NCBI GenBank assembly: GCA_964525635.1
Contig: CAZGJX010000003.1
Location: forward strand, 32,001 to 96,000
Reading direction: 5' to 3'
DNA length: 64,000 bases
Source: an uncultured archaeon
Lineage (GTDB): Archaea; Asgardarchaeota; Lokiarchaeia; Sigyniarchaeales; SOKP01
In this document: positions 58 through 57,717 of the stretch, one piece after another
Layout of the letters: every line of letters starts with the position of its first letter
Numbering within the stretch: position 1 is the first letter of the stretch
Program-made: the position numbers and the translations under genes
Notes under the pieces: model-generated
Databases searched by the model: none
Seen by the model: only the letters and a program-made list of their open reading frames with translations
What the model was told of the DNA's origin: nothing

Positions 58-2256
58 ATGTCTAATAACAAATTAACCGAAATAGAACATTTAGTTCTAC
101 ATGGAAAATATCAACAAGCATTAAAAATCCTAAATTCAGTTGAAAAAAAGAGAACTATAACAGATGATGAAATGTTAATGAAGTTATATTTAATGATTTT
201 TGTGCATCTTGATAAAGGTGAATTTCAAAAAGGACGAGATCTTGCTGATGAGATGTTAAAAATTTCAAAGGAACAGAATAATAAATTGCGGATGATTGAT
301 TCTTATATTGGGAAAACTGAAAATACAATATGTTTAAGCTTTTATGAAGAGTCATCTAATACCATTCAAATTGCGGAAAAACTCTTAGAAAAATTAGAAG
401 ATGAAACTTTGCAGGAATATAAACATAGAAAGGCTTACTTGAAATTTTTAAAAGCAAGAATTTATCAAGATTCACATGAAATCATTAAAGCAACAGAATT
501 ATTTGAACAAAGTTATGAATTAAGAAAGCAAATAAATGATAAGTTTGGAATGTTGTTCACTTTATTAAATTGGGGTATTTCAACAACGGCTATTGGAGAT
601 TTTAAAACGGGTGAAAAATACCTAAATAAGAGTCTAAATATTGCAAAAGAATTAAATAATGAAATAGGAATTATTTGGAATATCGTATATTCTGGTTGGA
701 TTAAATATCATCTAGGGGATCTAGATACAGCAATTTCTCACGCAAAAGAAGGACTTTCGATATGTGAGCCAAAGAATCTTGATTATTCAATAACTCATTG
801 TTATGATCTTCTTGGAAATTGTTATCTTGTTAAGGGTGATTTAAAAAAAGCATTATCTTATTTCGAGAGAAATTTAGAATTTAGATTAAAGCAAGGATAT
901 AACAATTTAATAACTCAGTCTTATTATAGCATTGGAAATGTATATTATCAGAAGGGTGAACTTAAGAGAAGTTTATCATATTACAATAAAATATTAAAAA
1001 GTCCTGAGGTTAAAGAAGACACAATATCTAAACCAACATATTTAAGCACAATTGGTAAAATTTATGGAGAACTCGGAGATTTTGAAACTGCTAAAAAGTT
1101 CCTATTGGAAGCATTAGATTTACTACGAAAGAGGAAAATATTTATTTATCATTATTTAAATTTTGATATTTCAATAGCAAAAACAATTCATTATTTAATT
1201 GTCCTCTCAGTAAATAATAATGATTTTGAAAATCTCAATCATTTATTAGAAGAATTGCATAAATTAAGCGATCAATTTCCTAAATTCAAACAAATCAGGC
1301 AATTATATCGGTTAGATAAAGCTATTATTTTAAAATCAAGTAACCGATTAATGGATAAAATGGAAGCATGGACAATCTTTAAAGGAATTGCTGAAGAAGA
1401 TATAAATGATCATCAAATAACAATTGAAGCTATGACAAATCTGTGTGAATTACTGATATATGAATTAGAATTAACGGGAAATAACAGTTTATTAAAGAAT
1501 ATAGAAGAACTTTCAGATGAATTATTAATCATTGCAAAATCCCAATACCTCTATAATTTAATGGTTGAGACCTATTTTTTTAAAGCAAAATTGTCTTTAT
1601 TAAATTTGAATATAAAGGATGCACGGCTATTATTAACAAAAGCGCAAAAAATTGCGAAAGACCATGATTTAAATCGATTAGCAAAAAAAATATCAAATGA
1701 ACATGATTCTTTATTGGTTCATATAGATGATTGGGAAGAAATGATTAGAAAAAAGATCCCTCTACAGGAAAGAGTAAATTATTCTAGACATGAATTTCTT
1801 TTTTCTAAAATGATCAGATCTAAAATTGAAAGGACACCAATTGAAAAGGATATACCCGTATATATCGTAATACTTTACCCTTATGATGGTCGTTGTTTAT
1901 ATAGTAAAGCTTTTCAAGATATTAGTATTAACGATGGTAATCTTATAGCAAGCTTTATTTCCGCTATTAATCTATTTGGTAAAGAAGCTTTATCTTCTTC
2001 AGGTTCAATTGATCGTATCAAACATGGTGATTTTTTGATCATTCTTCAACCCAAAGAAAAATTATTATTTGGATATGTATTCAAGGGGCAATCCTATTTC
2101 GCAAAAACTAAATTAGATAATTTTATCGAATTTTTATTAAATTCAACTAATTGTTTTAAAGTTTTAGAAGAATCCATACATAATCATCTTGAAATCTCAG
2201 AAGAAACTCGCTTAGAAATTGAAAAAATAGTACAACAAATTATTTTAAAAAATTAA
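58..2256 (+). CDS. TPR-repeat protein with C-terminal longin-like domain (paralogue 1, subtype A)
   Basis: TPR-like helices (YYSIGNVYYQKGELKRSLSYY); C-terminal IVILYPYDGRCLYSKAF...ASFISAINLFGKEA...IDRIKHGDF resembles the longin fold. Confidence 0.8.
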   Translation: MSNNKLTEIEHLVLHGKYQQALKILNSVEKKRTITDDEMLMKLYLMIFVHLDKGEFQKGRDLADEMLKISKEQNNKLRMIDSYIGKTENTICLSFYEESSNTIQIAEKLLEKLEDETLQEYKHRKAYLKFLKARIYQDSHEIIKATELFEQSYELRKQINDKFGMLFTLLNWGISTTAIGDFKTGEKYLNKSLNIAKELNNEIGIIWNIVYSGWIKYHLGDLDTAISHAKEGLSICEPKNLDYSITHCYDLLGNCYLVKGDLKKALSYFERNLEFRLKQGYNNLITQSYYSIGNVYYQKGELKRSLSYYNKILKSPEVKEDTISKPTYLSTIGKIYGELGDFETAKKFLLEALDLLRKRKIFIYHYLNFDISIAKTIHYLIVLSVNNNDFENLNHLLEELHKLSDQFPKFKQIRQLYRLDKAIILKSSNRLMDKMEAWTIFKGIAEEDINDHQITIEAMTNLCELLIYELELTGNNSLLKNIEELSDELLIIAKSQYLYNLMVETYFFKAKLSLLNLNIKDARLLLTKAQKIAKDHDLNRLAKKISNEHDSLLVHIDDWEEMIRKKIPLQERVNYSRHEFLFSKMIRSKIERTPIEKDIPVYIVILYPYDGRCLYSKAFQDISINDGNLIASFISAINLFGKEALSSSGSIDRIKHGDFLIILQPKEKLLFGYVFKGQSYFAKTKLDNFIEFLLNSTNCFKVLEESIHNHLEISEETRLEIEKIVQQIILKN

Positions 2257-2442
2257 AAAGAAATATTTAAGGACTTCATATTTAATAATTAGACTTTTTC
2301 TTAATCCTAATAAAATAAAACAATTTTCATTTTCAATCCTTAATTATAAATAGATATTACTTACATAAATTGTATAGAATATATAAAATCGAATTATATT
2401 AGTTATTTCATTGATAAAATCAAAATTATTCTTGTAGTTGTT

Positions 2443-4638
2443 ATGTTTGATAAACAAGAGAATTTAATAGAGCAGTACATATCTTATGGTCAATTTCAAG
2501 AAGCTTTCGATGAAATTAATTCAATAGAAAAGAAGCGTCCTTTACTTGAAAATGAAATATTTCAAAGATATTATGTGAAAATTTTCCTAAATCTCGATAA
2601 AGGTGAATTTCAAGAAGGGTGGGATCTCGCTGATGAGATGATCGAAGAAACACATAGGAAAAATAAAAAGTTATATGAATTGGATGCGATTATAGGAAAG
2701 ATAGAGAATGGTATTTGTTTATCTAAATTTGAGGAATGCTTTGAGTTAATACAAAAAGCTGAGTATATTATCAATAGTCTAGATAATATATCTAAAAAAG
2801 AATTGAAACTAAGAAAAGGATATCTTACTTTTCTTAAAGGTAGAATATATCAAGAAACTCATGAAGTCTTTAAAGCATTAGAGTTTTATCAGAAAAGTTA
2901 TAAAATAAGAAAGGAAATCGGTGAAAAATCTGGTTTATTATGGTCTTTATTAAATTGGGGAATAGTAGCAAATTTTATCGGAGAATTTCAAGAAGCGGAA
3001 AAATGTCATAAGCAGAGTTTAGAAATAGCTGAAGAATTAAATAATGAATTAGGAATTATATGGAACCTCATATCTTTAGGGTGGATCAGTTATCATTTAA
3101 GAGATCTTAAACTAGCATTTTATTATGCAAAAAAAGTTCTTTCAATAAGTAAATTAAATGAATTTAAGTATATATTAACATATTGTTATGATTTACTAGG
3201 ATATTGTTATATTTTAGAAGGTAATTTACAAACAGCTTTAGATTATTTCCAAAAAAGTTTAATTGTCAGATTGGAAGAAGGATATACACATTTTCTTGCC
3301 CAATCTTATTATAACATTGGATTAATATATAGTCAAAAGGGAGAACTTAAAGAAAGTTTATATTATTTCAATAAAGGTTTAAAAACTCTCAATGTAAAAG
3401 ATGATTTTATATTTAAGCCAACTTATTTAATTGCTATGGGTAAAGTATATGGAGAGCTTGGTGATTACCCTACTGCAAAAAAATATTTGATAGAAGCTGT
3501 AGACTTACTAAATAAGAAAAATATAGTTTTATATCATTTTTTACCATTTCATGTATCATTCGCAAAAGCATTTCACTATTTAATTGTTCTTTCAATAAAT
3601 AATAATGATAAAGAAAATATTGATAATTATTTGACACAATTACATAATTTAAATAAAAAATATGAAAGGCTCAAATTAACTGACCAATTATATCGATTAG
3701 ATAAAGCAATAATATTAATTTCAAGTGGTCATCTAATAGAGATTATGAAAGCAGGAACAATATTAGAAGATATTATGAATGAAAAAATAATTGATCATGA
3801 TATTGTAATAGAAGCAATGATTAATCAATGTGATGTTCTATTAAAAGAGTTAGAAATGACAGGGAATGATGAAATATTAGATGAATTAACAGAAATCTCA
3901 GAGAGATTACTACAAATTTCTCAATCCCAATATTTATATGATTTATATTCGGAATCTTATTTATTAAAGGCTAAAATTTCATTATTAAATTTAGATATTG
4001 ATAATGCACGTTTATCTTTGACAAAAGCTCAAAAAATCGCAAATAAATATGATTTAAAATTATTAGCAAGTAAGATATCTAATGAACATGATTCTTTATT
4101 GCAGAATTTAGATGAATGGGAGGAAAAAGCTAAATTAAATATTCCATTACAAGAAAGGTTGAAAGATTCTAGATATGAATTCTTATTTTCAAAAATGATT
4201 AGATCAAAAATAGAAGAATTACCATCAGAAAAGGAGATACCAATCTATTTTGTCATTTTAAATAGTTACGATGGTCAATGTCTATATGAAAAAATGTTTG
4301 AAGATATACAGATAATGGATGGAAATCTAATAGCAGGATTTATTTCTGCAATCAATTTTTATGGAAAGGAGGCATTTTCATCATCAGGTTCAATTGATAG
4401 AATAAAACATGGGGATTATTTAATTATACTTAACTCAATAGAAAATTTTATTTTTGGATATGTATTTAAAGGTAATTCATTTTCTGCAATTAATAAAATG
4501 AATAAAACTATTGAAACATTACAATTATTTAATAGCACTTTTGAAGACTTAAATAAATCAATTCAAACTCACCTTGAAATATCTGAGGAAACTAAATCAT
4601 TTATTGATAAAAAAATCCAAGAAATATTTTTGTTATAA
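2443..4638 (+). CDS. TPR-repeat protein with C-terminal longin-like domain (paralogue 2, subtype A)
   Basis: Collinear with paralogue 1 over its full length; shares SRYEFLFSKMIRSKI. Confidence 0.8.
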   Translation: MFDKQENLIEQYISYGQFQEAFDEINSIEKKRPLLENEIFQRYYVKIFLNLDKGEFQEGWDLADEMIEETHRKNKKLYELDAIIGKIENGICLSKFEECFELIQKAEYIINSLDNISKKELKLRKGYLTFLKGRIYQETHEVFKALEFYQKSYKIRKEIGEKSGLLWSLLNWGIVANFIGEFQEAEKCHKQSLEIAEELNNELGIIWNLISLGWISYHLRDLKLAFYYAKKVLSISKLNEFKYILTYCYDLLGYCYILEGNLQTALDYFQKSLIVRLEEGYTHFLAQSYYNIGLIYSQKGELKESLYYFNKGLKTLNVKDDFIFKPTYLIAMGKVYGELGDYPTAKKYLIEAVDLLNKKNIVLYHFLPFHVSFAKAFHYLIVLSINNNDKENIDNYLTQLHNLNKKYERLKLTDQLYRLDKAIILISSGHLIEIMKAGTILEDIMNEKIIDHDIVIEAMINQCDVLLKELEMTGNDEILDELTEISERLLQISQSQYLYDLYSESYLLKAKISLLNLDIDNARLSLTKAQKIANKYDLKLLASKISNEHDSLLQNLDEWEEKAKLNIPLQERLKDSRYEFLFSKMIRSKIEELPSEKEIPIYFVILNSYDGQCLYEKMFEDIQIMDGNLIAGFISAINFYGKEAFSSSGSIDRIKHGDYLIILNSIENFIFGYVFKGNSFSAINKMNKTIETLQLFNSTFEDLNKSIQTHLEISEETKSFIDKKIQEIFLL

Positions 4639-4913
4639 TTATTTATCTTTTTAAAAATAATATAATTTATATTCAATTAAAAAGTCCAACAATTATATTC
4701 TCTCATAAATACAATTCTTCATTAAAAAATTTTATATAAAAAAAAAAAAATCTAAATCCATAATTTTATATATAATATTGATTATTATTCGATTGTATTT
4801 GCATAATAATTAGGGATAACTAATATATTTTAACTAATTTCAAATTTGTATAATGAAAATTTGAAAAAATATCATTTAGTCATTATAAAAATTATTTAAT
4901 CTAAATAATAATT

Positions 4914-7103
4914 ATGTGTCATTATCAAATAGATGAAAATATTTCATACGGAAAGTATCTTGAAGCCCTAGAAAAATTAAAATTAATTGAGAAAAAAAGA
5001 ACACTAACTAGTGATGAATATTTATTAAAAATTTATGTAAACATTTTTATATTGCTTGATAACGGAGAATTTCATAGAGGTAAGGAACTTGCTGATAAAA
5101 TGATTAAAGAATCCAGAAAACAATGCAATATTTTAATGGAAATTGATGCATTAATAGGAAAAATTGAGCATAATTATAGTTTATCTATTTATAATGAATC
5201 ATTTGAATTAGTAGAGCAAGGAGAGAATCTTTTAAAAAAAATAAATGATAAAGAAATAAATCAAATAAAAAAACGTCAAGCATATTTATTATTTCTGAAA
5301 GGAAAGCTTTACCGTGATTCACATAATATAAAAAAAGCTTTAGAGCTATTTAAACAGAGTTATGAATTAAGAAAAGAAATTAATGATAGATTTGGAATGA
5401 TTTGGAGTTTATCAGAATTAGGAATATCAAGTACTACAATTGGAGATTTTAAAATAGCTAAGAAATATTTGAAAGAGGGTATAACTTTAACTAAAGAATT
5501 AGATGCAAGAATAGGTTTGATTTGGTGTTTAGTCCATATTGGTTGGGTAAGTTATCATTTAAGAGATTTAAATAGTGCTACATCATATGCAAAGGAATGT
5601 CTTTCAATCTGTCATTATAAAAAAAATAGTATTGCAATTTCACTTTGTTATGATCTTCTGGGTCATTGCTCCCTTGTAAAAGGAGATTTAAAAAATGCGT
5701 TACTCTTATTTAAGGATGGTCTTAATATTAGAAAAGAAAACAAATTTAATAATTTAATTCCATACTCTTATTGCTTAATAGGAGAAGTCTATTGTCAAAA
5801 GGGTGAATTTAAAAAAAGTATAGAATATTTTGATAAAATAATTGAAATTAAAGACTATTATTTAGGTGATATGTTTAAGCCTATGTATTTAAATGCATTA
5901 GGGAAGATCTATGGAGAATTAGGGGAATATAAGATTGCAAAAAAATATCTATTAGAAGCTTTAGATTTTTTAAAAAAAAAAAAGATATATCTCTTTCAAT
6001 TTATAAATTTTAATATATCCACAATAAAAATACTTCATAATTTAATTGTACTCTCAATAAATAACAAAGATTTTGAAAAAGTAAATAATTATTTAGATGA
6101 TTTATATCAAATCAAATTAAAGCATTCGGAGTTAAAACAAGTTGATCAAATATATCGATTAGATAAGGGTATTATTTTAAAGTCAGGAAATCGTTTAATG
6201 AACAAGATTAAAGCAGAAAAAATATTTAATGAAATTATTGAGGAAGAGAGAATTGATAATGAAATTACTATTGAAGTAATGAAAAATCAATGTGAAATCT
6301 ATCTATATGAATTAGAAATAAGTGGAGAAAAATATATACTACAGGAAATGGAGATGCTTTCTGATAAATTATTCATGATAGCCGAATCTGAGGAATTATT
6401 TGATACATTAGCCGAAGCATATTTTCTTAAAGCTAAAATAGCGTTATTAAATTTAGATATAAATAATGCACGCTTATTATTGACAAAAGCACAGAATATT
6501 GCAAATGAATATGAACTAACACGATTAGCAAGTAAAATATCTAATCAACACGATTCCCTTTTAATGAATTTAGATAAATGGGAGGAGAAAATTGAACAAA
6601 ATCTCACATTAAAGGAAAGATTAATAAATTCTAAAAATGACTTCCTGTTCTTTGAAAAAGATAGTTTAAATTCAATTGAAAAAGAAGATAAAAATGAAAT
6701 ACCGGTCTATTTTTTAATTATAAACAATATCAACGCAGAATGTATATATAATAAAGCATTTCAGAATATAAATATGGATGATGGTAGCCTTATAGCAGGA
6801 TATATTTCAGCCATTAATATTTTTGGAAAAGAAGCCTTTAATTCTTCAGGTTCGATTAACCGTATAAGACATGGTGAATATATAACAATTTTAGCTTTAA
6901 AAGAGGAATTTTTATTTGGATATATCTTTAAAGGTTATTCTTATTCTGCTATATCTAAATTGAATAAATTTATCAAAGAATTATCATACCTTACTTCTAA
7001 TTTTGAAAATATTACTTTAGAATTTGAAAGAAATCTAAAACTCCCTGAAGAACTCCATATAACTATGGAAAATTTAGTGGAAAACATTTTCTTGATGAGT
7101 TAA
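4914..7103 (+). CDS. TPR-repeat protein with C-terminal longin-like domain (paralogue 3, subtype B)
   Basis: Collinear paralogue; has the subtype-B segment IINNINAE..YNKAFQNIN. Confidence 0.8.
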   Translation: MCHYQIDENISYGKYLEALEKLKLIEKKRTLTSDEYLLKIYVNIFILLDNGEFHRGKELADKMIKESRKQCNILMEIDALIGKIEHNYSLSIYNESFELVEQGENLLKKINDKEINQIKKRQAYLLFLKGKLYRDSHNIKKALELFKQSYELRKEINDRFGMIWSLSELGISSTTIGDFKIAKKYLKEGITLTKELDARIGLIWCLVHIGWVSYHLRDLNSATSYAKECLSICHYKKNSIAISLCYDLLGHCSLVKGDLKNALLLFKDGLNIRKENKFNNLIPYSYCLIGEVYCQKGEFKKSIEYFDKIIEIKDYYLGDMFKPMYLNALGKIYGELGEYKIAKKYLLEALDFLKKKKIYLFQFINFNISTIKILHNLIVLSINNKDFEKVNNYLDDLYQIKLKHSELKQVDQIYRLDKGIILKSGNRLMNKIKAEKIFNEIIEEERIDNEITIEVMKNQCEIYLYELEISGEKYILQEMEMLSDKLFMIAESEELFDTLAEAYFLKAKIALLNLDINNARLLLTKAQNIANEYELTRLASKISNQHDSLLMNLDKWEEKIEQNLTLKERLINSKNDFLFFEKDSLNSIEKEDKNEIPVYFLIINNINAECIYNKAFQNINMDDGSLIAGYISAINIFGKEAFNSSGSINRIRHGEYITILALKEEFLFGYIFKGYSYSAISKLNKFIKELSYLTSNFENITLEFERNLKLPEELHITMENLVENIFLMS

Positions 7104-7220
7104 TTCTTAGTTAAAATCTAGTTTTCTTGTATTTTAATAACTTACAAATTTATTTTTAATAAAATATAAATATGACTTATCCTTAAAATTCTCATAGTAC
7201 TTAAAATATGATATATTAAT

Positions 7221-7274
7221 ATGCATGCATATAAATTTAAACTCGGTTGGCAGTGGCCATGGCGTTTCGAATAA
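7221..7274 (+). CDS. trpL: putative trp operon leader peptide MHAYKFKLGWQWPWRFE (17 aa)
   Basis: Read by hand: ATG 7221, TGG at 7248/7254/7260, TAA 7272-7274; directly upstream of the trp operon. Confidence 0.75.
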   Translation: MHAYKFKLGWQWPWRFE

Positions 7275-7338
7275 CGCTCTTGCATTGGTATAATCATATT
7301 TTAGTATGTGCTTTTTAATAGAATCATGCTATTTTTTT
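7251..7338 (+). promoter_or_regulatory. putative trp attenuator: hairpin over the Trp codons and stop, followed by U-tracts
   Basis: GCGTT-tcgaat-AACGC stem (7262-7277), extendable with CAGTG(7251)/CATTG(7283-7287); T5 at 7312-7316 and T7 at 7332-7338. Confidence 0.5.
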
Positions 7339-7447
7339 ATTGATCATTTATATCTAATAAATGTGCTTTACAATATTGATTTCCTATATGTTAAAGTTAC
7401 ACATCTATGATGTTAAATTAAAATAATAAAATTAAAATGAAATAAAA

Positions 7448-7690
7448 ATGTTGGAAGAAAAATTAATATCTAAAAAAATGAATGAATTAAATGATTTAGA
7501 TTCAATTATAGATTCAAATGAGTTACATATCTCTCAAGAGAAGATCTATACTCAAGTAATGAAACTTATCAATAAAAAAAAGACAATCATTTTTGGTCCA
7601 GAAAAAAGTAAAACAGCAAAATTTATTGCTGAAAATTGTATGGATGTGTACAATATAATTAGAAAATATTATATGGAGAATTCTGATTAA
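7448..7690 (+). CDS. hypothetical 80-aa protein, first gene of the trp operon
   Basis: ORF stops 1 nt before the trpD ATG; contains no Trp. Confidence 0.55.
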   Translation: MLEEKLISKKMNELNDLDSIIDSNELHISQEKIYTQVMKLINKKKTIIFGPEKSKTAKFIAENCMDVYNIIRKYYMENSD

Positions 7691-7691
7691 G

Positions 7692-8750
7692 ATGTCTGAA
7701 GAGATTAAGATATTAACAGGATTAAACAGTGTAATTAAGAATATAGATCTATCAACCAATGATGCAGAAGAAATAATGCGTGAGATTATGAGCGGAAGAG
7801 TCACTAACGCTCAATTAGGAGCATTTTTAACTGCATTAAACATGAAAGGTGAATCTATTGATGAAATAGTTGGATTTGCAAAAATTATGAGAGAATTTGC
7901 AAATCGTATCGAACCAAATGTTTCAGGTGAATTATTGGATACATGTGGAACAGGAGGAGATAAAATAAAAACATTTAATATTAGCACGATTTCTGCAATA
8001 GTTCTTGCTGGAGCTGGAGCTTATGTTGCAAAACATGGGAATAGAGCAGTTACAAGTAAATGTGGAAGTGCTGATTTATTAGAAGGACTTGGAGTAAATA
8101 TAGCTTTAGAACCAGGAAAAGTAAAGAATTGTATTGAACAAGCAGGAATTGGCTTTATGTTTGCTCCTCTGTTTCATCCTGCTATGAAATATGCAATGCC
8201 TACTAGAAGAGAATTAAAAATCCGAACTGTCTTTAATATTTTAGGTCCTTTAACAAATCCAGCTAATGCAAAATGTCATGTTTTAGGTGTATTTAAAAAA
8301 GAGATGGTTCCAATCATGGCGAAGGTTCTAAAAGGATTAGATGCAAAACATGTCTTTACTGTTCATAATTCATATGGAATTGACGAACTTGCTCCCACAG
8401 GAGTAAATTATATTACAGAATATATGGATGGAAACCTTGAAAGTTATGCAATTACCAATAAAGAATTTAATATTCCTGATTGTTCTATTAATGAATTGTT
8501 AGCCGGAAATCTTGAGGAAAATTTAAAAATAGCAATTGATATTCTCAAAAATCAATCTTCTGGGGCAAAATTTAATACGGTTTTAATGAATGCTGCTTTA
8601 GCATTAAAAAGTATAGATATTGCTCATGATTTTCAAGAAGGTGTGGCAATTGCTAAAGAAACGATTGAATCTGGAAAAGCCTTTGATAAATTAAAAAAAT
8701 TTATTGAAATTTCTGGTGGAGATATCCAAAAATTAATGAATCTTACATAA
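7692..8750 (+). CDS. trpD: anthranilate phosphoribosyltransferase
   Basis: DTCGTGGD, FNIST, KHGNRAVTSKCGSAD, RTVFNILGPLTNP motifs. Confidence 0.97.
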   Translation: MSEEIKILTGLNSVIKNIDLSTNDAEEIMREIMSGRVTNAQLGAFLTALNMKGESIDEIVGFAKIMREFANRIEPNVSGELLDTCGTGGDKIKTFNISTISAIVLAGAGAYVAKHGNRAVTSKCGSADLLEGLGVNIALEPGKVKNCIEQAGIGFMFAPLFHPAMKYAMPTRRELKIRTVFNILGPLTNPANAKCHVLGVFKKEMVPIMAKVLKGLDAKHVFTVHNSYGIDELAPTGVNYITEYMDGNLESYAITNKEFNIPDCSINELLAGNLEENLKIAIDILKNQSSGAKFNTVLMNAALALKSIDIAHDFQEGVAIAKETIESGKAFDKLKKFIEISGGDIQKLMNLT

Positions 8751-8769
8751 ATTAAGAGTAAACTAAATA

Positions 8770-9573
8770 ATGGTTTCAGATAAAATAAGAGAAATAGTAA
8801 ACAAGAGATTAAAAACAATATCTAATGATATTGAATATGAAAAACATATGGAAAGTTCAATTCAAAATAAAAATATTTTAAATCTAAGTGAAACTATTAA
8901 AAATAATAAAGGAATTTCAATCATTTCTGAAATAAAACCAGCATCACCAACATTAGGAGAAATAAGAAGCAATATTAACGTTCCAGATATTGCTAAAATC
9001 ATGAAAGATTCAGGTGTTATTGGATTAAGTATTTTGACAGAACCAAATTATTTCAATGGTTCATATACTAATTTGAAATTAGCTGTTGAAACTACAGAAT
9101 TACCTTGCTTGATGAAAGATTTTGTTATTAATCCTATCCAATTTTCTATAGCTAGCAAACTTGGAGCAACGAATATTTTAATTATTAACTCAATTGAAAA
9201 TCTAAATTTAGAGGAGTATTATAATTTAGCAATGAATTATCATCTTGAACCACTTATCGAAATTCATGATATAGATGAAATTAAAGATATTCAACATTTA
9301 TTCGAAATTGGTTTTAATCCAAAATTAATTGGTGTTAATAATCGCAACCTGAATACCTTATTAATAGATCTTAATACATCTAAGAAAATTATACCAGAAT
9401 TAAAACAAGAATTTGGAAATAAAATTCAAATTGTAAGTGAAAGTGGTATAAATTCTCATAGTGATATTAAAGAATTGCAATCTTATGGTGCTAATGCATT
9501 TTTAATAGGATCTTCAATTATGAAATCAATTGATATTAGTAAAAAGATCCATGAATTAAGAGGTGTAGATTAA
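8770..9573 (+). CDS. trpC: indole-3-glycerol phosphate synthase
   Basis: ISEIKPASPT, SILTEPNYFNGS, KDF, GVNNRNL, SESGI motifs. Confidence 0.96.
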   Translation: MVSDKIREIVNKRLKTISNDIEYEKHMESSIQNKNILNLSETIKNNKGISIISEIKPASPTLGEIRSNINVPDIAKIMKDSGVIGLSILTEPNYFNGSYTNLKLAVETTELPCLMKDFVINPIQFSIASKLGATNILIINSIENLNLEEYYNLAMNYHLEPLIEIHDIDEIKDIQHLFEIGFNPKLIGVNNRNLNTLLIDLNTSKKIIPELKQEFGNKIQIVSESGINSHSDIKELQSYGANAFLIGSSIMKSIDISKKIHELRGVD

Positions 9574-10226
9574 TGGAATATATTAAAATCTGTGGTATCA
9601 AAAATTTTGATGATGCCAAACTATGTATTGAAAATGGAGCAGACGCAATAGGATTTGTATATAATGTCCCTTCTTCTCCAAGAAATCTAGAAATAAATGA
9701 AATTAATTCACTTATTAATCAGATAAATAATAAGATTTCTACAGTCTTAGTAACTAAATCTAATAATTTGGAGGAAATTCAAAGATTAATAAAGGAGTAT
9801 AATATTACATATTTTCAAATACATTCAAATTTAGATATTAATGAGTTTAATCAACTTCCAACTGAAATAAAACAAAAACTTATTATAACTCTTAAAGTAA
9901 ATAATGAAAATAAAGATTCAATCACATCAATCATCAATAAATTCAATGACCAATTTCATGCCTTTTTATTAGATAATAGTGAAGGTCATGGAAATGAATT
10001 AGATATAAATCTAGTAAAAAAAATTATAACCAATTTAAAAGATACGAGAATTATTCTTGCGGGAGGAATAAATATTAAAAATATTGAAAATATTATTAAA
10101 ATTTTAAATCCCTATGGTATTGATCTTAGTAGCTCTTTAGAATCTGAAAAAGGAGTGAAAGACCCTAATAAAATTATAAATTTCTTAGAAAAAATAAATG
10201 GAATAAAAAATAACATTAAAAATTGA
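9573..10226 (+). CDS. trpF: phosphoribosylanthranilate isomerase
   Basis: IKICGI, GADAIGFV, SPR, ILAGGI, GIDLSSSLESEKGVKD. Confidence 0.95.
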   Translation: MEYIKICGIKNFDDAKLCIENGADAIGFVYNVPSSPRNLEINEINSLINQINNKISTVLVTKSNNLEEIQRLIKEYNITYFQIHSNLDINEFNQLPTEIKQKLIITLKVNNENKDSITSIINKFNDQFHAFLLDNSEGHGNELDINLVKKIITNLKDTRIILAGGINIKNIENIIKILNPYGIDLSSSLESEKGVKDPNKIINFLEKINGIKNNIKN

Positions 10227-11447
10227 GTGAAAATGGACTATATTGGAAAATATCCTGATAAATTAGGAAAATTTGGTGATTTTGGGGGTATGTTTGCACC
10301 TGAGATCCTTATGCCTGCACTAAATGAATTGACTGAAGCATATAATAAATATATACATGATGATGAGTTCCAAAAAGAATTTTATGACATTCTTAAAGAT
10401 TATAGTGGAAGACCTACACCATTGTATTATGCATCTAAACTAAGTGAACAGATTGGGTGTAAAGTTTACTTAAAGAGAGAAGATCTCTCCCATGGAGGCG
10501 CTCACAAGATCAACAATGTTATAGGACAATCGCTGCTCGCAAAGAAAATTGGTAAGAAACGCTTAGTAGCTGAAACCGGTGCTGGGCAACATGGATTCGC
10601 AACGGCAATAGCGGGGGCTTATTTTGGAATGCCAACAAAAGTATTTATGGGAGAGGTAGATATAGTAAGACAATCTATGAATGTATATCGAATGCAACTC
10701 CTAGGTGCTGAAGTTATTCCTGTTAAATCAGGTTCTAGAACATTGAAAGATGCTATTAATGAAGGTTTAAGATATTGGATAGCAAATGTTCATGATACAC
10801 ATTATCTCATGGGGAGTGTAGTTGGACCACATCCATATCCTATGTTAGTAAGAGAATTTCAAAGAGTTATTGGTAAGGAAATAAAACAACAAATATTAGA
10901 AAAAGAAGGTAAGCTTCCTAATGCGATTATTGCGTGTATTGGAGGAGGTAGTAATGCTATTGGAGCTTTCTATGACTTTGTAAATGATGATGTTCAATTA
11001 ATTGGTGTAGAGGCGGGTGGAGAGGGAATGGAGAGTGGTAAACATTCAATAGCATTAGGTTTAGGACGTCGAGGTGTTTTACATGGTGCTATGCAACATC
11101 TTTTGCAGGATGAGTTTGGAAACATTCTTGAAACTCATTCTATCAGTGCAGGATTAGATTATCCAGGGGTCGGACCAGAACATTGCTATTTAAAAGAAAT
11201 TAATCGCTTAAGAGTTGGGGAAGCAACTGATCAGGAGACTTTAGAGGCATTTAAGAATTTATCTCGTGTTGAAGGTATCATTCCAGCCTTGGAAAGCAGC
11301 CATGCTCTTGGATATCTATACAAAATTAGAAATGAATTCGATAAATCAGATATAGTTATTATCAATCTTTCTGGATCGGGAAGTAAAGATTTATCAATTG
11401 TGGCAGATCATATAAAATTTAAAATACATCCTAAGAACATATTGTAA
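10227..11447 (+). CDS. trpB: tryptophan synthase beta chain (TrpB1 type)
   Basis: [16 protein letters not shown] (PLP lysine), [32 protein letters not shown]. Confidence 0.98.
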
Positions 11448-11537
11448 TTTTCTTTAGAAAATTAAATTAATTATTTAAAGTATTAATAAATGATGGAAAA
11501 TATGGGAATTAACAAGAATAAAATTGAAGAATGTAAT

Positions 11538-11624
11538 GATGATACAGTTATTGTTAAATTATCTGGTTCAGGATAAAAAGATCTTGATATAATTAAAGAA
11601 TATATGGTGTTTAAAGTAAAATGA
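11538..11624 (+). pseudogene. relic second copy of the trpB 3' end
   Basis: Reads DDTVIVKLSGSG*KDLDIIKEYMVFKVK*, versus [28 protein letters not shown] in trpB; its TGA overlaps the trpA ATG. Confidence 0.75.
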
Positions 11625-12457
11625 GTAATACAAATAGATTATTTAAGTTATTTAATGGTAGAGATGTCAATGACAAATATTTTATGCCCTTTTTTGTAGC
11701 AGGAGATCCGAGTATTGATGAGTTTAAGAATATCATCAAGAAAATTGAGCCATATGCAGATATCATTGAAATTGGGATACCATTTTCCGATCCTATTGCA
11801 GATGGTCCAACAATTCAAGAAGGAAATGTAAGAGCCTTTAAAGCAGGAATTAATACAAAAGTAGCTCTGGATGCAATTAAAGAACTAAGAAAATCAACTG
11901 ATAAACCTTTTGTTATTTTAACTTATTATAATATACTTATTCAAGGAGCTGAAACAATAGAAAAGTCAATTGATAAAACATTTAAACAATTAAAAGAAAG
12001 TGGAATAGATGGAATGGTTATCGCAGATCTACCAATTGAGGAAGCAAATTTAGTTTTAGAAGCATGTGAAAAGTATGATTTAGCATTAATATTTCTTGTT
12101 GCACCTTCTACCACAGAAGAAAGATTAAAAAAGATCTTGCTTAAAGCAAAAGGATTTATTTATCTAATATCAGTAATGGGTGTAACTGGAGCAAGAGAAA
12201 CGGTTGCTCAAATTACAAAGGAGAATATAGCAAGAATAAAGCAAAAAACTGATAAAAACCTTCCCGTTTTTGTAGGATTTGGTATATCAAAACCAGAACA
12301 TGCAAAAGCTATTATTGAAGCAGGAGCAGATGGAGTTATAATTGGTTCTGCGATTGTAGATCTTATTAAAAATAATCTAAATGATTTTCAGGAAATTGAA
12401 GGAAAATTAGTAGAATTTCATGAAAACATAAAAAATTCAATAAAGAGGTCGAATTAA
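11621..12457 (+). CDS. trpA: tryptophan synthase alpha chain
   Basis: AGDP, IEIGIPFSDPIADGPTIQ, GVTGAR, VGFGIS, ADGVIIGSA. Confidence 0.98.
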   Translation: MSNTNRLFKLFNGRDVNDKYFMPFFVAGDPSIDEFKNIIKKIEPYADIIEIGIPFSDPIADGPTIQEGNVRAFKAGINTKVALDAIKELRKSTDKPFVILTYYNILIQGAETIEKSIDKTFKQLKESGIDGMVIADLPIEEANLVLEACEKYDLALIFLVAPSTTEERLKKILLKAKGFIYLISVMGVTGARETVAQITKENIARIKQKTDKNLPVFVGFGISKPEHAKAIIEAGADGVIIGSAIVDLIKNNLNDFQEIEGKLVEFHENIKNSIKRSN

Positions 12458-12458
12458 A

Positions 12459-13955
12459 TTGGATTTTGACATACATATAGAAAAAATTGGAGAATTAGAT
12501 AATATCTTTAATTTTTATAAATATCTCATCGAAAAATATGATTTTAAGAAGCATGTCCTATTAGAATCCTCATCAGGAAACTCAAACGAAACCTTATATA
12601 GTTTTATTGCTCTTGAACCTGATTTTATGTTTGAAATTAATGGGAAGAACTATAAAATTTTCGATATCACTTCAGAAAGAGGTGAAAATATCAAAAATTA
12701 TGTTGAATCTAAAGATCCCGCTAAGGAAATACCACGTAATCCCCTACCATTTAATGATAATGTCGATTATAATATGATTGCTTTAGATACCTTAAGTCAT
12801 CTTACCCCATATTCTAAATTACCTTTTACTGAACTATTTCCAAGAAATATATTTTTTGGAGGAGTAGTAGGGGTGATCTCTTATGATATAGTAGCACCAT
12901 ATGTTGGTTATCAATCTAATAGTGAATTTCCAGATATTCTCATGGGACTTTATACAAAAGTACTTGTATATTCGCACAAATCTAATGCTTTATTTATGAT
13001 AGATAATAGCCTTGATGATTATTCAAGGGACAAGGACATTAGATATCAATTAGAATTGTTTAAAAGAAATAATATTAAAAATAAAAAGAAAGATATTCCA
13101 TTAGATCTCGACGATATAGATGAAAGTATGTTTAGATCGAATACTTCTAAATCAGCTCACGAACAAATGGTGAACAAGACTAAAGAGCATATATATGCTG
13201 GCGATATAATTCAAGCGGTTATCTCTAGAAGACTATATACTGAAAGTAAAGTAAATCCTATTAATTTTTATGAAATACTTAGAGAGCTTAATCCCTCGAA
13301 TTATATGTATAATATCAATTTCAATTATATTAAAATAATTGGTAGTAGCCCCGAAGCTCTTATAACAAAAAATAAAGATGTTCTATCAACTATGCCAATA
13401 GCAGGAACGATAAGAAGAAGTAAGGATCCAGAAGAAGACTTGAATTTAGAGAGAGAATTACTAGGTAATATAAAGGAGAGGGCCGAGCACCTCATGCTAG
13501 TAGATTTGGCAAGGAATGACTTAGCTAAGGTCTCATATCCTGGAACTGTCGAAACATTTGATTTTATGACGATTCAGAAATACCAAAAAGTTCAACATAT
13601 CGTAAGCAAAGTTAGAAGTAAGACACCTCTTGATGGTTTTCAAGCATTAAAAAGTGTTTTTCCTGCAGGGACATTATCAGGAGCACCCAAATTAGAAGCT
13701 ATGAAAATAATCCAAGAACTTGAAACTGAAAATCGCTCATTTTATGGTGGAGCAATTGGCTATTTCAGTTTTAATGGGGATCTAGCAATGGCAATTGCCA
13801 TTAGAACATTATTTGGTCGGGGAAATAAATATTTTGCTCAAGCAGGGGGTGGAATTGTCGCAGACTCCCAACCAGAACAAGAATTCCAAGAAACTTATAA
13901 CAAATTATACAGTGTTTTGAAATCAATTAAGATAGCGGAGGCAAGAGAACAATGA
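12459..13955 (+). CDS. trpE: anthranilate synthase component I
   Basis: LLES, NPSNYM, SSPE, KERAEHLMLVDLARND, FPAGTLSGAPK, AGGGIVADS; TTG start. Confidence 0.95.
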   Translation: MDFDIHIEKIGELDNIFNFYKYLIEKYDFKKHVLLESSSGNSNETLYSFIALEPDFMFEINGKNYKIFDITSERGENIKNYVESKDPAKEIPRNPLPFNDNVDYNMIALDTLSHLTPYSKLPFTELFPRNIFFGGVVGVISYDIVAPYVGYQSNSEFPDILMGLYTKVLVYSHKSNALFMIDNSLDDYSRDKDIRYQLELFKRNNIKNKKKDIPLDLDDIDESMFRSNTSKSAHEQMVNKTKEHIYAGDIIQAVISRRLYTESKVNPINFYEILRELNPSNYMYNINFNYIKIIGSSPEALITKNKDVLSTMPIAGTIRRSKDPEEDLNLERELLGNIKERAEHLMLVDLARNDLAKVSYPGTVETFDFMTIQKYQKVQHIVSKVRSKTPLDGFQALKSVFPAGTLSGAPKLEAMKIIQELETENRSFYGGAIGYFSFNGDLAMAIAIRTLFGRGNKYFAQAGGGIVADSQPEQEFQETYNKLYSVLKSIKIAEAREQ

Positions 13956-14545
13956 ATATTTTATTTATAAATAATTACGATAGCTTTGTTTATAATTTAG
14001 TTAATTATTTCTGTCAGTTGGCTCCAGACGCTAGAATCATGATCGAAGACAATAATATCTCTATAGAAAAAGTTGAAGAATATTCTATTGATAAAATTAT
14101 AATATCACCTGGCCCCGGTCATCCCAAATACGATACAGGAACTGTCATTCCTATTATTAAACACTATCATAAAGAAATTCCGATCTTAGGGATTTGTCTT
14201 GGACATCAAGCAATTGTTGAAGCTTTTGGTGATAAGCCCGATTTGGAATATATTGGACGAGCTAAAGTAGGACCTATGCATGGAAAACAATCAAAGATAT
14301 TTCATGATCAAGAAAAAATCTATAAGGATATACCTAATCCAATCCAAGTTATTCGCTATCATTCTCTTGCAGCTAAAGGGGACATTCTTCCTCAAGACCT
14401 TAAAATCACAGCTACTGCAGATGATGGAACAATTATGGGGGTTCGACATAAACAATTTCCAGTTGAAGGGGTTCAGTTTCATCCCGAATCAATACAAATG
14501 AAGCCCCATGGAATGCAAATTTTAAAAAATTTCTTAGATATATGA
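13952..14545 (+). CDS. trpG: anthranilate synthase component II (glutamine amidotransferase)
   Basis: NYDSFVYNL, ISPGPG, GICLGHQ, RYHSL, QFHPES. Confidence 0.96.
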   Translation: MNILFINNYDSFVYNLVNYFCQLAPDARIMIEDNNISIEKVEEYSIDKIIISPGPGHPKYDTGTVIPIIKHYHKEIPILGICLGHQAIVEAFGDKPDLEYIGRAKVGPMHGKQSKIFHDQEKIYKDIPNPIQVIRYHSLAAKGDILPQDLKITATADDGTIMGVRHKQFPVEGVQFHPESIQMKPHGMQILKNFLDI

Positions 14546-14547
14546 AA

Positions 14548-17319
14548 TTAACTAAGAGAAAGTTCAAGTAATTCTCTACCTAACTTAGTAAGAGAATATT
14601 TATATTGTCTTTTATTATTACTTAAGGTAGAAGGATTATAAGCAATTATTCTTTTTAAATATCTTTTCTTATAAAGATCTCGTATCATCCATTCAAGGCT
14701 CTTAATATCATCCAAGTAATTTAACTTTAATAGATCTAAAGCAAAATAAGATCCTTTGCTAAATTCTAGTAAAATTCTTCGCTGAAAATCTGTTAGATAA
14801 TTGAAACCTTCACGGTCACCTAACTTTTTTCTATATTGAATCTCATCTTCATAGTCTTCTACAAAAAATTTTCGATGATCAAATTTCGGAATGGGAGGTA
14901 ATTTTTTTCCTGTTTTTTCTTCAATCTGTCTTATTATTTTTTCTTGCATTTCTTCAAGCTCAATTTTTTTCCATTCTCCATTTCGCATTTCATATCCAAG
15001 CACTATTAATAATATATATTGTTTCTCACAAAATTCAATTTTGAACTGATCAATTTCTAATTGTCTTTCATGATCCTCTTCCTTTTTTTGCCATTCTGGC
15101 ACTCTAATATAATGTTGCCTTCCTTGTCGCTCAAAACCTACTAATAATTCAAGATTAAAACCATCTAAATGCATTCTAGTAATATCAAAATTGATTTTAT
15201 TTGGATCATATCTCGCTAAGCCTTCTCTACCTTCGATATTTAAAACTATTTGAATTAGTGGTGTCTCAAGAAATTTAATTTGTTTCTTATACAAGTAAGA
15301 AAATATTCTTTCCATATAACATCTGAATACTTTCTCATAATAACCCTTTGAGCAATGAGGACACCATGACCTTCTTTTTTTCACTTTATATATCCGCTTT
15401 TTAAAAATTTTCTTACACTTTCCACATCGCCAATTATGTAGTTTATCGCTTCCCTTATATATATTCGATAAAAATTCACCAGGTGCTCCCGTTTTTTCTA
15501 AACCCACTTCATAAGCCAATTTTCTTAATCCCTTAATAGTAGGCGTAACTTTATGAGCACACTTAGAACACCAACTTCTTCTCGATTTCACTTTGTTAGG
15601 TGTCATAGTAAACTCATGTTTGCAAGCACCACATTTCCATCTAAGTTTGGATGTCGCTCCTTTATATTCATCAGACAAACAAAATCCAGGGACTTTAGTT
15701 TTTTCTAGCCCAACTTCATATGCCAAAATTCTCATATCTTCAATAGTCTGTTCTTTACCAGCACATCTAGGACACCATGACCTTTTCGATTTTATATCAT
15801 TTGGTGTCATAAAAAATTTATTTTCACATTTTCCACAATACCATTCTAATTCTGTGGAAGAATTAATATACTTATTGGATAAACACCGTCCAGAAACACC
15901 CGTTTTCTCCATTCCAACATCATAAGCTAATTCATGCATATCCTCAATTGTTATTTGTTTATGTAAAAAATGTGGATTATTACTACATCTAGGACACCAC
16001 TCCTTTCTAATTTTCACTTTATCAGGGTTTTTTGAGAATACATATCTGCAAGCTCCACATCGCCATTTTAATTCAGTTTTCATATTTATATAATTTTTTG
16101 ATAAACACTCACCTTCAATCCCTGTTTTTTCTATACCTACCACACGGGCTAGTTCTTGCATATCTAATATAGAATATTTCTTAATTTCTTTAACCCCTCT
16201 TACTTTTAATTTAATGTTAACTTCGTTTGCTAATTGTTGCAATAAATTAAAAGAATCCTCAGGGATAGATTTACTTTGATAGATAATATCTCCAATTCTG
16301 GTATGAATATAATCACTAATAGATTTGTTTGTCATACTTAACTCTAACCTCAATTTATCTATTAAAGACTTGGTCTTTTCCTTATCAAGTATGAAATATT
16401 TTTTTATAGGGAATGTCGATTTAGTATAAATTCCATCATAAATCGTTTCGCTCTTCTTATAATCTTCTTCATTCATAAAATTATAAAATTCATAACCACA
16501 CTGACCACATTTCCATAGAAGTTTTGTTTTATTATTAAAATATTCTTTGGATAAACATTTTTTTGGAACTCCAGTTTTTTCTAATCCCAAATCATGGGCT
16601 AATTTAATCATATCTCTTATTTTTTCCTCTTTTTTCTTTTTATAAATTATAAATTTCTTTAATTCATCTCTAATTACTTCATAGAAATGAGAGAGATTAT
16701 TTGAATTCCATTTTTCTTTTATGATGATAAAAATATGAGAGATGATCCATTTTAAATATACTTCAACATCAGATTTATAAAAAGGATCTTTTTTTATTTT
16801 TTCTTGAAACTTAGCATGATATGTATTAAATTCTTCTGTTCTCAACTTTTTGTAAAGATTTTCAAGATAAATTCTTTGAATCTTCTTTTCTGTAATTGGC
16901 AAAATAAAATCTTCTAAATTTTTTAATACTTCACTTTTTAATTTACTTTTTTTTATTTTTTGCTTTAAATGTCTTTCCACATCTCCGATTATATCATATA
17001 TGAGGCGAGAGATTATAATGACGAGATTTTGTTTAAATAATTTTGGAAAATCAGGGTCATAATAAACCCTCTCGATTGGATATTTATATGTTTTTCTTAT
17101 TTCTTGTTCTTTATTGTTAATTCTTTTATCCTCATATTTTTCCTCAGAATGAATATTATCTTGAACAAAAATATTTTTTATCTCAAATTTCGTTCCACAA
17201 TATTGACAAAATGCGAATTCATCGGCTATTGGATTATTTTCTATATCTTTTATCTGTAATCTAATACCACAATTTTCACAAAATAAGGAGTTCCCATTCT
17301 TGTTTTTTGACTCATTCAT
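14548..17319 (-). CDS. multi-zinc-ribbon repeat protein with Vsr/DUF559-like endonuclease domain and C-terminal winged helix
   Basis: N-terminal CENC..CQYC; repeats with WxCxxC...WCPxC; LDGFNLELLVGFERQGRQHY...DQFKIEFC; wHTH-like end YKYSLTKLGRELL. Confidence 0.7.
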   Translation of the reverse strand: MNESKNKNGNSLFCENCGIRLQIKDIENNPIADEFAFCQYCGTKFEIKNIFVQDNIHSEEKYEDKRINNKEQEIRKTYKYPIERVYYDPDFPKLFKQNLVIIISRLIYDIIGDVERHLKQKIKKSKLKSEVLKNLEDFILPITEKKIQRIYLENLYKKLRTEEFNTYHAKFQEKIKKDPFYKSDVEVYLKWIISHIFIIIKEKWNSNNLSHFYEVIRDELKKFIIYKKKKEEKIRDMIKLAHDLGLEKTGVPKKCLSKEYFNNKTKLLWKCGQCGYEFYNFMNEEDYKKSETIYDGIYTKSTFPIKKYFILDKEKTKSLIDKLRLELSMTNKSISDYIHTRIGDIIYQSKSIPEDSFNLLQQLANEVNIKLKVRGVKEIKKYSILDMQELARVVGIEKTGIEGECLSKNYINMKTELKWRCGACRYVFSKNPDKVKIRKEWCPRCSNNPHFLHKQITIEDMHELAYDVGMEKTGVSGRCLSNKYINSSTELEWYCGKCENKFFMTPNDIKSKRSWCPRCAGKEQTIEDMRILAYEVGLEKTKVPGFCLSDEYKGATSKLRWKCGACKHEFTMTPNKVKSRRSWCSKCAHKVTPTIKGLRKLAYEVGLEKTGAPGEFLSNIYKGSDKLHNWRCGKCKKIFKKRIYKVKKRRSWCPHCSKGYYEKVFRCYMERIFSYLYKKQIKFLETPLIQIVLNIEGREGLARYDPNKINFDITRMHLDGFNLELLVGFERQGRQHYIRVPEWQKKEEDHERQLEIDQFKIEFCEKQYILLIVLGYEMRNGEWKKIELEEMQEKIIRQIEEKTGKKLPPIPKFDHRKFFVEDYEDEIQYRKKLGDREGFNYLTDFQRRILLEFSKGSYFALDLLKLNYLDDIKSLEWMIRDLYKKRYLKRIIAYNPSTLSNNKRQYKYSLTKLGRELLELSLS
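15345..16620 (-). repeat. about five ~68-aa intragenic zinc-ribbon repeats (first one partial)
   Basis: Recurrent (T)IEDMxxLAxxVGxEKTGxxGxCLSxxY...LxWxCGxC...WCPxC; coordinates approximate. Confidence 0.8.
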
Positions 17320-19773: not shown

Positions 19774-19945
19774 AACTTCTTTGATTATATATTGAAGCAG
19801 TAATTTTGTATATATTTTTTAAGACTATATCTTTGTAGGGAATATAAAACTGAAAAAAAAAGATTCAAAATTATTTGTTATAAAAAAATATATTTTACTA
19901 ATGATAATTTAATTTTTACAAAACTAATAAACATATAGCTATAAG

Positions 19946-57517: not shown

Positions 57518-57619
57518 ATGAAGATGCTTCAAAATATAAAAGATAATTATAATATGAGCAATTTGGGGCAAGTTTTATCCTTAGGTTTACTTTTAAATTT
57601 ACTTTTATTATTATTATAA
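57518..57619 (+). CDS. leuL: putative leu leader peptide MKMLQNIKDNYNMSNLGQVLSLGLLLNLLLLLL (33 aa; alternative starts 57524, 57554)
   Basis: Read by hand; 13 Leu codons, six consecutive before TAA; ends 98 nt upstream of leuA. Confidence 0.7.
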   Translation: MKMLQNIKDNYNMSNLGQVLSLGLLLNLLLLLL

Positions 57620-57623
57620 AGCG

Positions 57624-57678
57624 CCTTCTAATGTTTTATAAGATTTGATAATTCTACTTCTTATAAACATCTAGAAGG
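57624..57678 (+). promoter_or_regulatory. long hairpin immediately after the leu leader stop
   Basis: CCTTCTAATGTTTTATAAGA (57624-57643) pairs with TCTTATAAACATCTAGAAGG (57659-57678), one bulge per arm. Confidence 0.75.
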
Positions 57679-57717
57679 TTATTGAATTAATACACAGTTT
57701 AAAGTAGGTAAAAGAAA

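Follow-up and report, generated by a model that had tools for sequence, protein, structure and literature searches.

Control of Trp biosynthesis genes by a ribosome reading a leader peptide is known from bacteria. For archaea, the published regulators of trp genes, TrpY of Methanothermobacter and Tar (TK0271) of Thermococcus, are DNA-binding proteins that act at initiation, and a leader peptide is undescribed (PMC6737238). With most subscription journals outside our search, we found no published case of archaeal leader-peptide attenuation. Archaeal termination relies on U-tracts and aCPSF1 (FttA), and the Lokiarchaeum aCPSF1 orthologue works with U-tracts in Methanococcus (PMC8716108); Spt5 bridges FttA to RNA polymerase (PMC13675443), and FttA acts by analogy to Rho (PMC13681488). 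In bacteria, Rho attenuators gated by an upstream ORF (uORF) provide a precedent for the design considered here (PMC12360218).

We analyzed a 64,000-nt stretch of DNA from an uncultured archaeon of the Lokiarchaeia (the window), in which an earlier, sequence-only reading had placed a Trp-rich uORF that senses Trp-tRNA ahead of a trpDCFBAEG operon. That part of the reading is supported by conservation, by occurrence before two types of trp unit, by sister leaders for other amino acids and by a covarying hairpin; the likeness to TrpL and a classical RNA switch were not supported. The nearest named relatives are Promethearchaeota, which places the host among Loki-type Asgard archaea. Comparative sequence analysis shows the cis-element to be real and conserved, and it very probably gauges Trp by means of the ribosome, in a domain where we found no such control described. 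Its features are collected in Table 1.

Table 1. Positions of the leader elements, putative signals and controlled genes in the window.
Feature	Position	Strand	Remarks
Putative TATA box	7165–7172	+	56 nt 5′ of leader ATG; implied start near 7190–7195
Weak Shine-Dalgarno-like site of leader ORF	7209–7212	+	G enrichment in the family
Leader ORF	7221–7274	+	17 codons; Trp at codons 10, 12 and 14; kept before trpD and trpB2
Hairpin I (1:2-like)	7251–7288	+	Trp-codon region with arm after stop; core 7262–7266/7273–7277; lower stem ends 7283–7288
U-rich, G-poor spacer	7289–7360	+	T4, T5 and T7 tracts; proposed zone of aCPSF1/intrinsic termination, from family composition
Hairpin H2	7361–7404	+	Three stems, 3-nt 3′ bulge, conserved loop; A-rich sequence after
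80-aa helical ORF	7448–7690	+	First operon cistron in a subset of genomes; homologues at ≥8 loci
trpD-C-F-B-A-E-G operon	7692–14545	+	Controlled genes
Leu-rich leader ORF and long hairpin before leuA (57718–59331)	57518–57680	+	Conserved in the family

The Trp-codon leader and its distribution

The leader ORF lies in a 344-nt intergenic gap between a TPR gene (4914–7103) and the 80-aa ORF. Re-translation returned the 17-aa peptide that had been claimed for it, with three TGG codons (at 7248, 7254 and 7260) and a TAA stop at 7272–7274, and the GC-rich patch described with it was also found, positions 7243–7289 being 53% GC as compared with 9–25% across the remaining intergenic region. At least three Trp within 10 codons occur in 6 of the 3,428 short ATG-initiated ORFs that lie upstream of genes in the whole genome. 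Among 75 family members, TATA-like hexamers peak at −60 to −52 relative to the leader ATG, and G occupies positions −11 and −10 in 57% and 48% of leaders, compared with 1–17% at the remaining upstream positions. A translated leader ORF with a short 5′ UTR would be expected to have these features. RNA-library contigs of a relative connect the interior of the leader ORF with trpD (in three runs, all from one study; the contigs carry no ends or levels). Their common end at L046:7390, tried as a transcription start, was rejected because two leader copies have 36 nt in common there, which explains it; the lack of coverage further upstream is not evidence for a start either.

The gene order of the operon is as previously read; what had been missed is the conserved 80-aa ORF between leader and operon, which adjoins trpD and takes this position at at least 8 loci. 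Pfam searching gave no family for it, and its homologues are in Loki only. The 80-aa protein has an invariant Gly-Pro-Glu-Lys motif; its best fold match, a protein of unknown function with a Z score of 7.3, is at chance level for small helical folds and was discarded as an identification. Trp is nearly absent from the controlled proteins, with one codon among 2,295 in the eight downstream ORFs (80-aa ORF included). The genome encodes aCPSF1; no TrpR was found in it above cut-off, and no TGTACA box was seen in 7100–7450 when the sequence was read by eye. Five tandem paralogous TPR genes of ~730 aa each flank the operon (window positions 58–7103 and 17569–22141). A gene on the minus strand (14548–17319) converges on trpG, with 2 nt separating the stops; its 923-aa product contains a zinc-ribbon-like Cys-x-x-Cys unit repeated many times, and one end may be nuclease-like.

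Whether relatives carry a Trp-rich uORF had been set beforehand as a refuting test of the sequence-only reading, and such uORFs are present at ~110 loci. We searched for TrpD in 40 relatives, across the class and in 400 genomes from its phylum. In one Asgard clade, 37 of the 38 trpD-first loci with enough upstream DNA are preceded by a Trp-rich mini-ORF (L049 is the ambiguous case), a short frame that ends in 2–5 Trp and lies 50–520 nt ahead of the operon. The loci extend to other families of the class and to three families beyond it, including Ca. Borrarchaeum; in distant leaders the start codon is often TTG or GTG, or is unclear. The same leader family precedes 27 of 29 stand-alone trpB2 loci, plus one doubtful case, and is found before trpB2 also in genomes where trpD was not found. 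In one genome (G049), trpD and trpB2 each have a copy upstream; the two copies share their start, diverge in the middle and keep the frame intact. An in-frame ATG lies 9–40 codons upstream at 95 of 110 loci, vs 14.8% for comparable intergenic stops. The sampled genomes are kin and hence statistically dependent, and the p-values reported below overstate significance because of this relatedness.

Leader lengths range from 12 to 35 codons and Trp counts from 2 to 6, the residues between Trp are variable, and in most leaders the last Trp repeat is 0–4 codons from the stop. The GW..WR layout shared with E. coli TrpL, on which the sequence-only reading had remarked, is chance: Gly precedes the first Trp in 8 of 109 leaders and tandem Trp-Trp occurs in 12, vs Trp-x-Trp in 95. 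Of the 109, 71 have Trp-x-Trp-x-Trp, and in 98 an Arg or His comes after Trp. In three loci of one genus (L004, L044, L036) some leader Trp codons have become Cys (TGG to TGT), which could tune sensitivity or add Cys sensing, and in seven others (L043; L375, L377, L379–L381, L385) the stop has shifted to 6–9 codons past the last Trp, L043 retaining the hairpin I sequence.

No convincing Trp leader (ATG start, or at least three Trp) was seen at the trpE-first Asgard operons and non-Asgard archaeal loci examined, and none was found before this genome's own trpB2 or trpS/tyrS. The trpB2 gene here (G000:C209, 565–2536) follows a roadblock-like gene; most relatives differ. Marinimicrobia-like bacteria (L275, L289, L304) have short ATG-initiated frames ahead of trpE that contain two Trp codons and are probably ordinary bacterial trpL. 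In a quick, unrooted tree, the TrpDs of the leader clade form one branch (SH-aLRT 96; leader present in 22 of 24 rows) whose neighbours are archaeal, and nothing in this tree points to the operon having been imported recently from bacteria.

Hairpin I, the U-rich spacer and hairpin H2

In hairpin I, a late Trp codon and the bases after it pair with an arm that follows the stop codon, which itself falls in or at the loop. The stem reported earlier (GCGTT/AACGC, at the core positions of Table 1) was recovered, and in this genome its CAGTG/CATTG extension has the minimum free energy, at −12.7 kcal/mol, with alternatives close to it; the lower stem can pair in two registers of nearly equal energy. 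The upper stem exists in at least six sequence versions in which compensatory variants keep the pairing. When arms were swapped between members, native arms outpaired swapped ones (p = 0.001, n = 23; p < 1e-4, n = 65); the same test was not significant in a dereplicated subgroup of 17, because the arms there are nearly alike. Folded as a single sequence, 7210–7345 (136 nt) equals its shuffles (z 0.12), so the case rests on conservation. RNAalifold returned zero pairs on whole alignments of Trp and Leu leaders, which are gappy, and was replaced by these anchored swap tests and by local alignment.

The earlier extent of the element, 7221–7338, takes in the leader and stops short of the conserved RNA, which continues to ~7404. 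Both T-tracts noted at that time were confirmed (T5 at 7312–7316, T7 at 7332–7338), and a T4 lies at 7299–7302 as well. Family spacers average 64 nt, 50% U, 6% G and 2.8 U4 tracts, and 59 of 65 have at least two U4 tracts, compared with 42% of stretches after ordinary gene stops. Published data put the smallest site bound by aCPSF1 at two U4 tracts in a stretch of at least 18 nt (PMC8716108), and the spacer reaches this. About 10 Trp leaders, mostly outside the family, have 0–1 U4 tracts between +15 and +75. There was no family support for a terminator hairpin conserved between +20 and +70 (p 0.17), and this includes the weak hairpin before T7 here. The post-stop arm of hairpin I, segment 2 (7273–7288), was also tested as a partner of the spacer and of the H2 loop, without support for either.

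H2 is the best-conserved structure. In the family alignment 87% of cells are paired and 8 pairs are doubly changed, a result matched by 0 of 500 shuffles; its stems are recovered by RNAalifold and its loop is conserved in sequence. A covariance model built from H2 alone has a single match in this genome (7353–7410). In the family it matches 102 sites, spread over 97 of the 135 genomes, and 100 of these sites lie directly before trpD or trpB2 (coordinates compared by reading). Outside the sequences used in model building there are 48 matches: a Trp-rich frame ends 58–81 nt upstream of 44, 2 are without one and 2 are false. Downstream, H2 is followed by A-rich sequence and then a start codon, with no U4 tract in 60 of 65 members and ~15–45 nt between the end of H2 and the first start codon. 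Pairing of its 3′ arm with downstream sequence was tested and found no support. Two loci (L336, L373) have H2 before trpB2 and no Trp-rich frame within 220 nt. A second subfamily (for example L004, L036 and L040) is without H2 and, judged by eye, may use a long-range helix instead. In several distant Trp leaders a single long hairpin directly follows the stop, as in the Leu leader described below.

Leaders ahead of other amino-acid genes

A blind leader scan of this genome returned three further leaders among its top matches. The Leu leader encodes 33 aa (57518–57619, with a second Met at 57554) and its Leu run extends to the stop codon, which lies 98 nt upstream of leuA. Within 57518–57717 the stop is followed by a long covarying hairpin, whose native arms outpair swapped arms (p < 5e-5), and then by an A-rich spacer, an SD-like site and a stand-alone leuA. 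The arrangement is found at 29 of 29 assessable family loci and also in a second family; Leu leaders have a mean of 0.7 U4 tracts.

A leader rich in Ala, Val and Leu precedes one ilvE paralogue at 17 loci and was unseen at the other 13, which apparently hold the second paralogue; in this genome it lies 146 nt before ilvE on the minus strand (L138, contig G000:C77). Leaders rich in Ala are unusual. An ILV leader with hairpin is found before a four-gene 2-oxoacid:ferredoxin oxidoreductase operon at 16 of 30 loci (here L139:579–683, on G000:C22). Most family members (L388–L418) also have a Phe-rich frame ending in Pro-Arg-Glu before pheS-pheT-pheA; in this genome the Phe frame seems to be without an in-frame ATG, and the ATG frame that runs through a T9 run is a different frame. 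No cognate leader was found before hisG or the second LeuA-like gene of this genome. The shift of the enriched residue with the pathway is the strongest argument for codon-based sensing.

This genome holds two further candidates. At about 12104–12190 (+) of G000:C6, a diverged ilvE-type leader with the same post-stop motif precedes two ABC-transporter-like genes, and a short Cys-rich frame (L140; G000:C28, 13778–13834) lies 301 nt before a CbiM-like gene.

Output of the leader, and comparison with described systems

We put the probability that the leader senses Trp through a translating ribosome at roughly 0.9. As to output, we infer transcription attenuation; early termination in the U-rich spacer by aCPSF1/FttA after the ribosome departs is favoured at slightly better than even odds, and somewhat more firmly once sensing is granted. 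Hairpin I would pause RNA polymerase until a ribosome loads and melts the hairpin. With charged Trp-tRNA plentiful, the ribosome would finish and leave, hairpin I would refold, and the exposed U-tracts would be read by aCPSF1/FttA, ending the transcript ahead of the operon. With Trp short, the ribosome would stall on UGG and stay on the RNA beside the polymerase, and aCPSF1 would be kept off, by masking, by holding Spt5 or by freeing segment 2 to refold the spacer, until the polymerase is beyond it. H2 may close the termination window or protect the mRNA, possibly as a protein-binding site.

Some observations constrain this scheme. The archaeal ribosome footprint is 27 nt and extends ~11 nt past the A site (PMC7261190), so a stalled ribosome cannot itself cover U-tracts 25–65 nt past the stop. 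Folding with ribosome-masked segments, which the sequence-only reading had proposed, left spacer accessibility at ~0.5 in every ribosome state, and gating would therefore have to act via coupling or folding kinetics. Because U4 tracts are few in Leu leaders, one U-tract model fails to cover all leaders. It counts against the explanation that it gives H2 no essential role.

More tentatively, and at rather less than even odds, the Trp, Leu, branched-chain and Phe leaders may constitute a network of ribosome-gated attenuators in Loki-lineage Asgard archaea, in which ribosome release licenses aCPSF1/FttA cleavage and termination at a spacer bounded by two hairpins. If so, amino acids would be sensed via archaeal transcription–translation coupling with a nuclease as the switch, aCPSF1/FttA being the orthologue of eukaryotic CPSF73. 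Its output is expected to depend on ribosome position, and the 200-nt element thus makes the question of archaeal coupling testable; terminator reporters, aCPSF1 depletion and complementation with Loki aCPSF1 exist in Methanococcus (PMC8716108).

The same sensor could instead act post-transcriptionally. Transcription would be constant, and ribosome dwell would set either initiation at the first gene or survival of the mRNA, the latter through cleavage of the bare U-rich spacer and subsequent 5′–3′ decay. The short distance from H2 to the first start codon suits such an output, as does the fact that aCPSF1 is also a nuclease, and the contigs that bridge leader ORF and trpD favour it weakly. Translational attenuators of actinobacteria, which reportedly comprise Cys leaders and the LEU element, offer a precedent. 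However, the ribosome site of the first gene is outside H2, within A-rich sequence (by eye in the Trp leaders), a helix between the Leu leader and its SD does no better than swaps or shuffles (p 0.42), and control of the first cistron only would be poor regulation for a 7-gene operon unless polarity follows. We consider a purely post-transcriptional output unlikely.

Equally doubtful in our judgement is an RNA switch in the classical style with the same sensor, in which a stall frees segment 2 to pair with the 5′ arm of H2 and so blocks H2, the latter being the off signal, either terminator-like or as a protein or nuclease site. A 1:2, 2:3, 3:4 chain can be drawn, in which segment 2 of many members forms 5–7 bp with the 5′ arm of H2, and before H2 is complete the predicted 2:3 pairing is 3.7 bp with the ribosome masking at the last Trp, vs 1.4 bp with free RNA and 1.9 bp at the stop. 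Native 2:3 energy is −4.9 vs −3.2 for shuffles, and the Leu, ilvE and oxidoreductase leaders likewise bear a long hairpin without a following U run. Against this, the 2:3 helix has no covariation, and swapped partners equal native ones (p 0.60 and 0.72; 0.25–0.32 in another test). H2 prevails at equilibrium in all ribosome states, it is retained at the two loci without a nearby Trp leader, and 60 of 65 members have no U4 tract after it. With no hairpin-plus-U terminator-like site found on the plus strand either, a classical terminator/antiterminator switch is not supported.

Two other explanations would replace the sensor, and we regard both as very improbable. A TnaC- or AAP-like arrest peptide could bind free Trp in the ribosome tunnel, or act in trans, and the last residues, Trp-x-Trp-x-Trp and Trp-Arg/His, are indeed similar in many members; yet neither sequence nor spacing is fixed, with length and Trp count varying as given above and spacer residues varying freely, the RNA stem accounts for Arg/His, and in the sister leaders the cognate codons simply form runs. 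Trp-induced arrest of TnaC turns catabolic genes on, moreover, which is the wrong sign for a biosynthetic operon. That the mini-ORF is a by-product of a structured RNA or DNA site (riboswitch, TRAP-like UGG repeats or operator) with incidental Trp codons is suggested by the spaced UGG repeats, which could form a protein-binding array, and by the conserved H2 loop sequence, but the repeats are in frame with an upstream ATG at many distances and mostly end close to the stop, the codons become Leu, Val/Ala or Phe before matching genes, and TrpR was not detected.

The preferred reading, a ribosome-based Trp gauge with termination in the spacer, can be set beside four described systems. TrpY and Tar control the same pathway in archaea, but they are DNA-binding proteins, whereas the element here is a leader peptide. 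The element resembles bacterial leader-peptide attenuators in the way it would work, without belonging to the trpL family. With trpL (RF00513) and the other classical attenuators of this type it shares a leader ORF with cognate codons, a hairpin over the control codons, Trp-poor enzymes and membership of a set of leaders. It differs from them in its archaeal host and promoter, in alternating rather than tandem Trp, in the lack of a covarying antiterminator, in its archaeal TrpD clade, and in having U-tracts between the hairpins and a downstream hairpin without a U run; an Rfam search that included RF00513 (Trp_leader) gave no match. Like the actinobacterial LEU element and mycobacterial poly-Cys leaders, it has cognate codons at the very end of the leader and no classical terminator; a covarying helix masking the ribosome site of the next gene was not found when looked for in the Leu leader. 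In E. coli tnaC and speFL and Salmonella mgtL and corL, as here, a uORF is followed by a loosely structured stretch of biased composition that suits a termination factor and is exposed by ribosome release (PMC12360218), and the factor-loading stretch directly after the uORF is present here in archaeal form, as the U-rich spacer. The factor would be the nuclease aCPSF1/FttA and not Rho, the stretch is U-rich and not C-rich, sensing would rely on hungry codons, and the direction of control is the reverse of that in tnaC. In layout, the element is closer to these uORF-gated Rho attenuators than to the trpL family.
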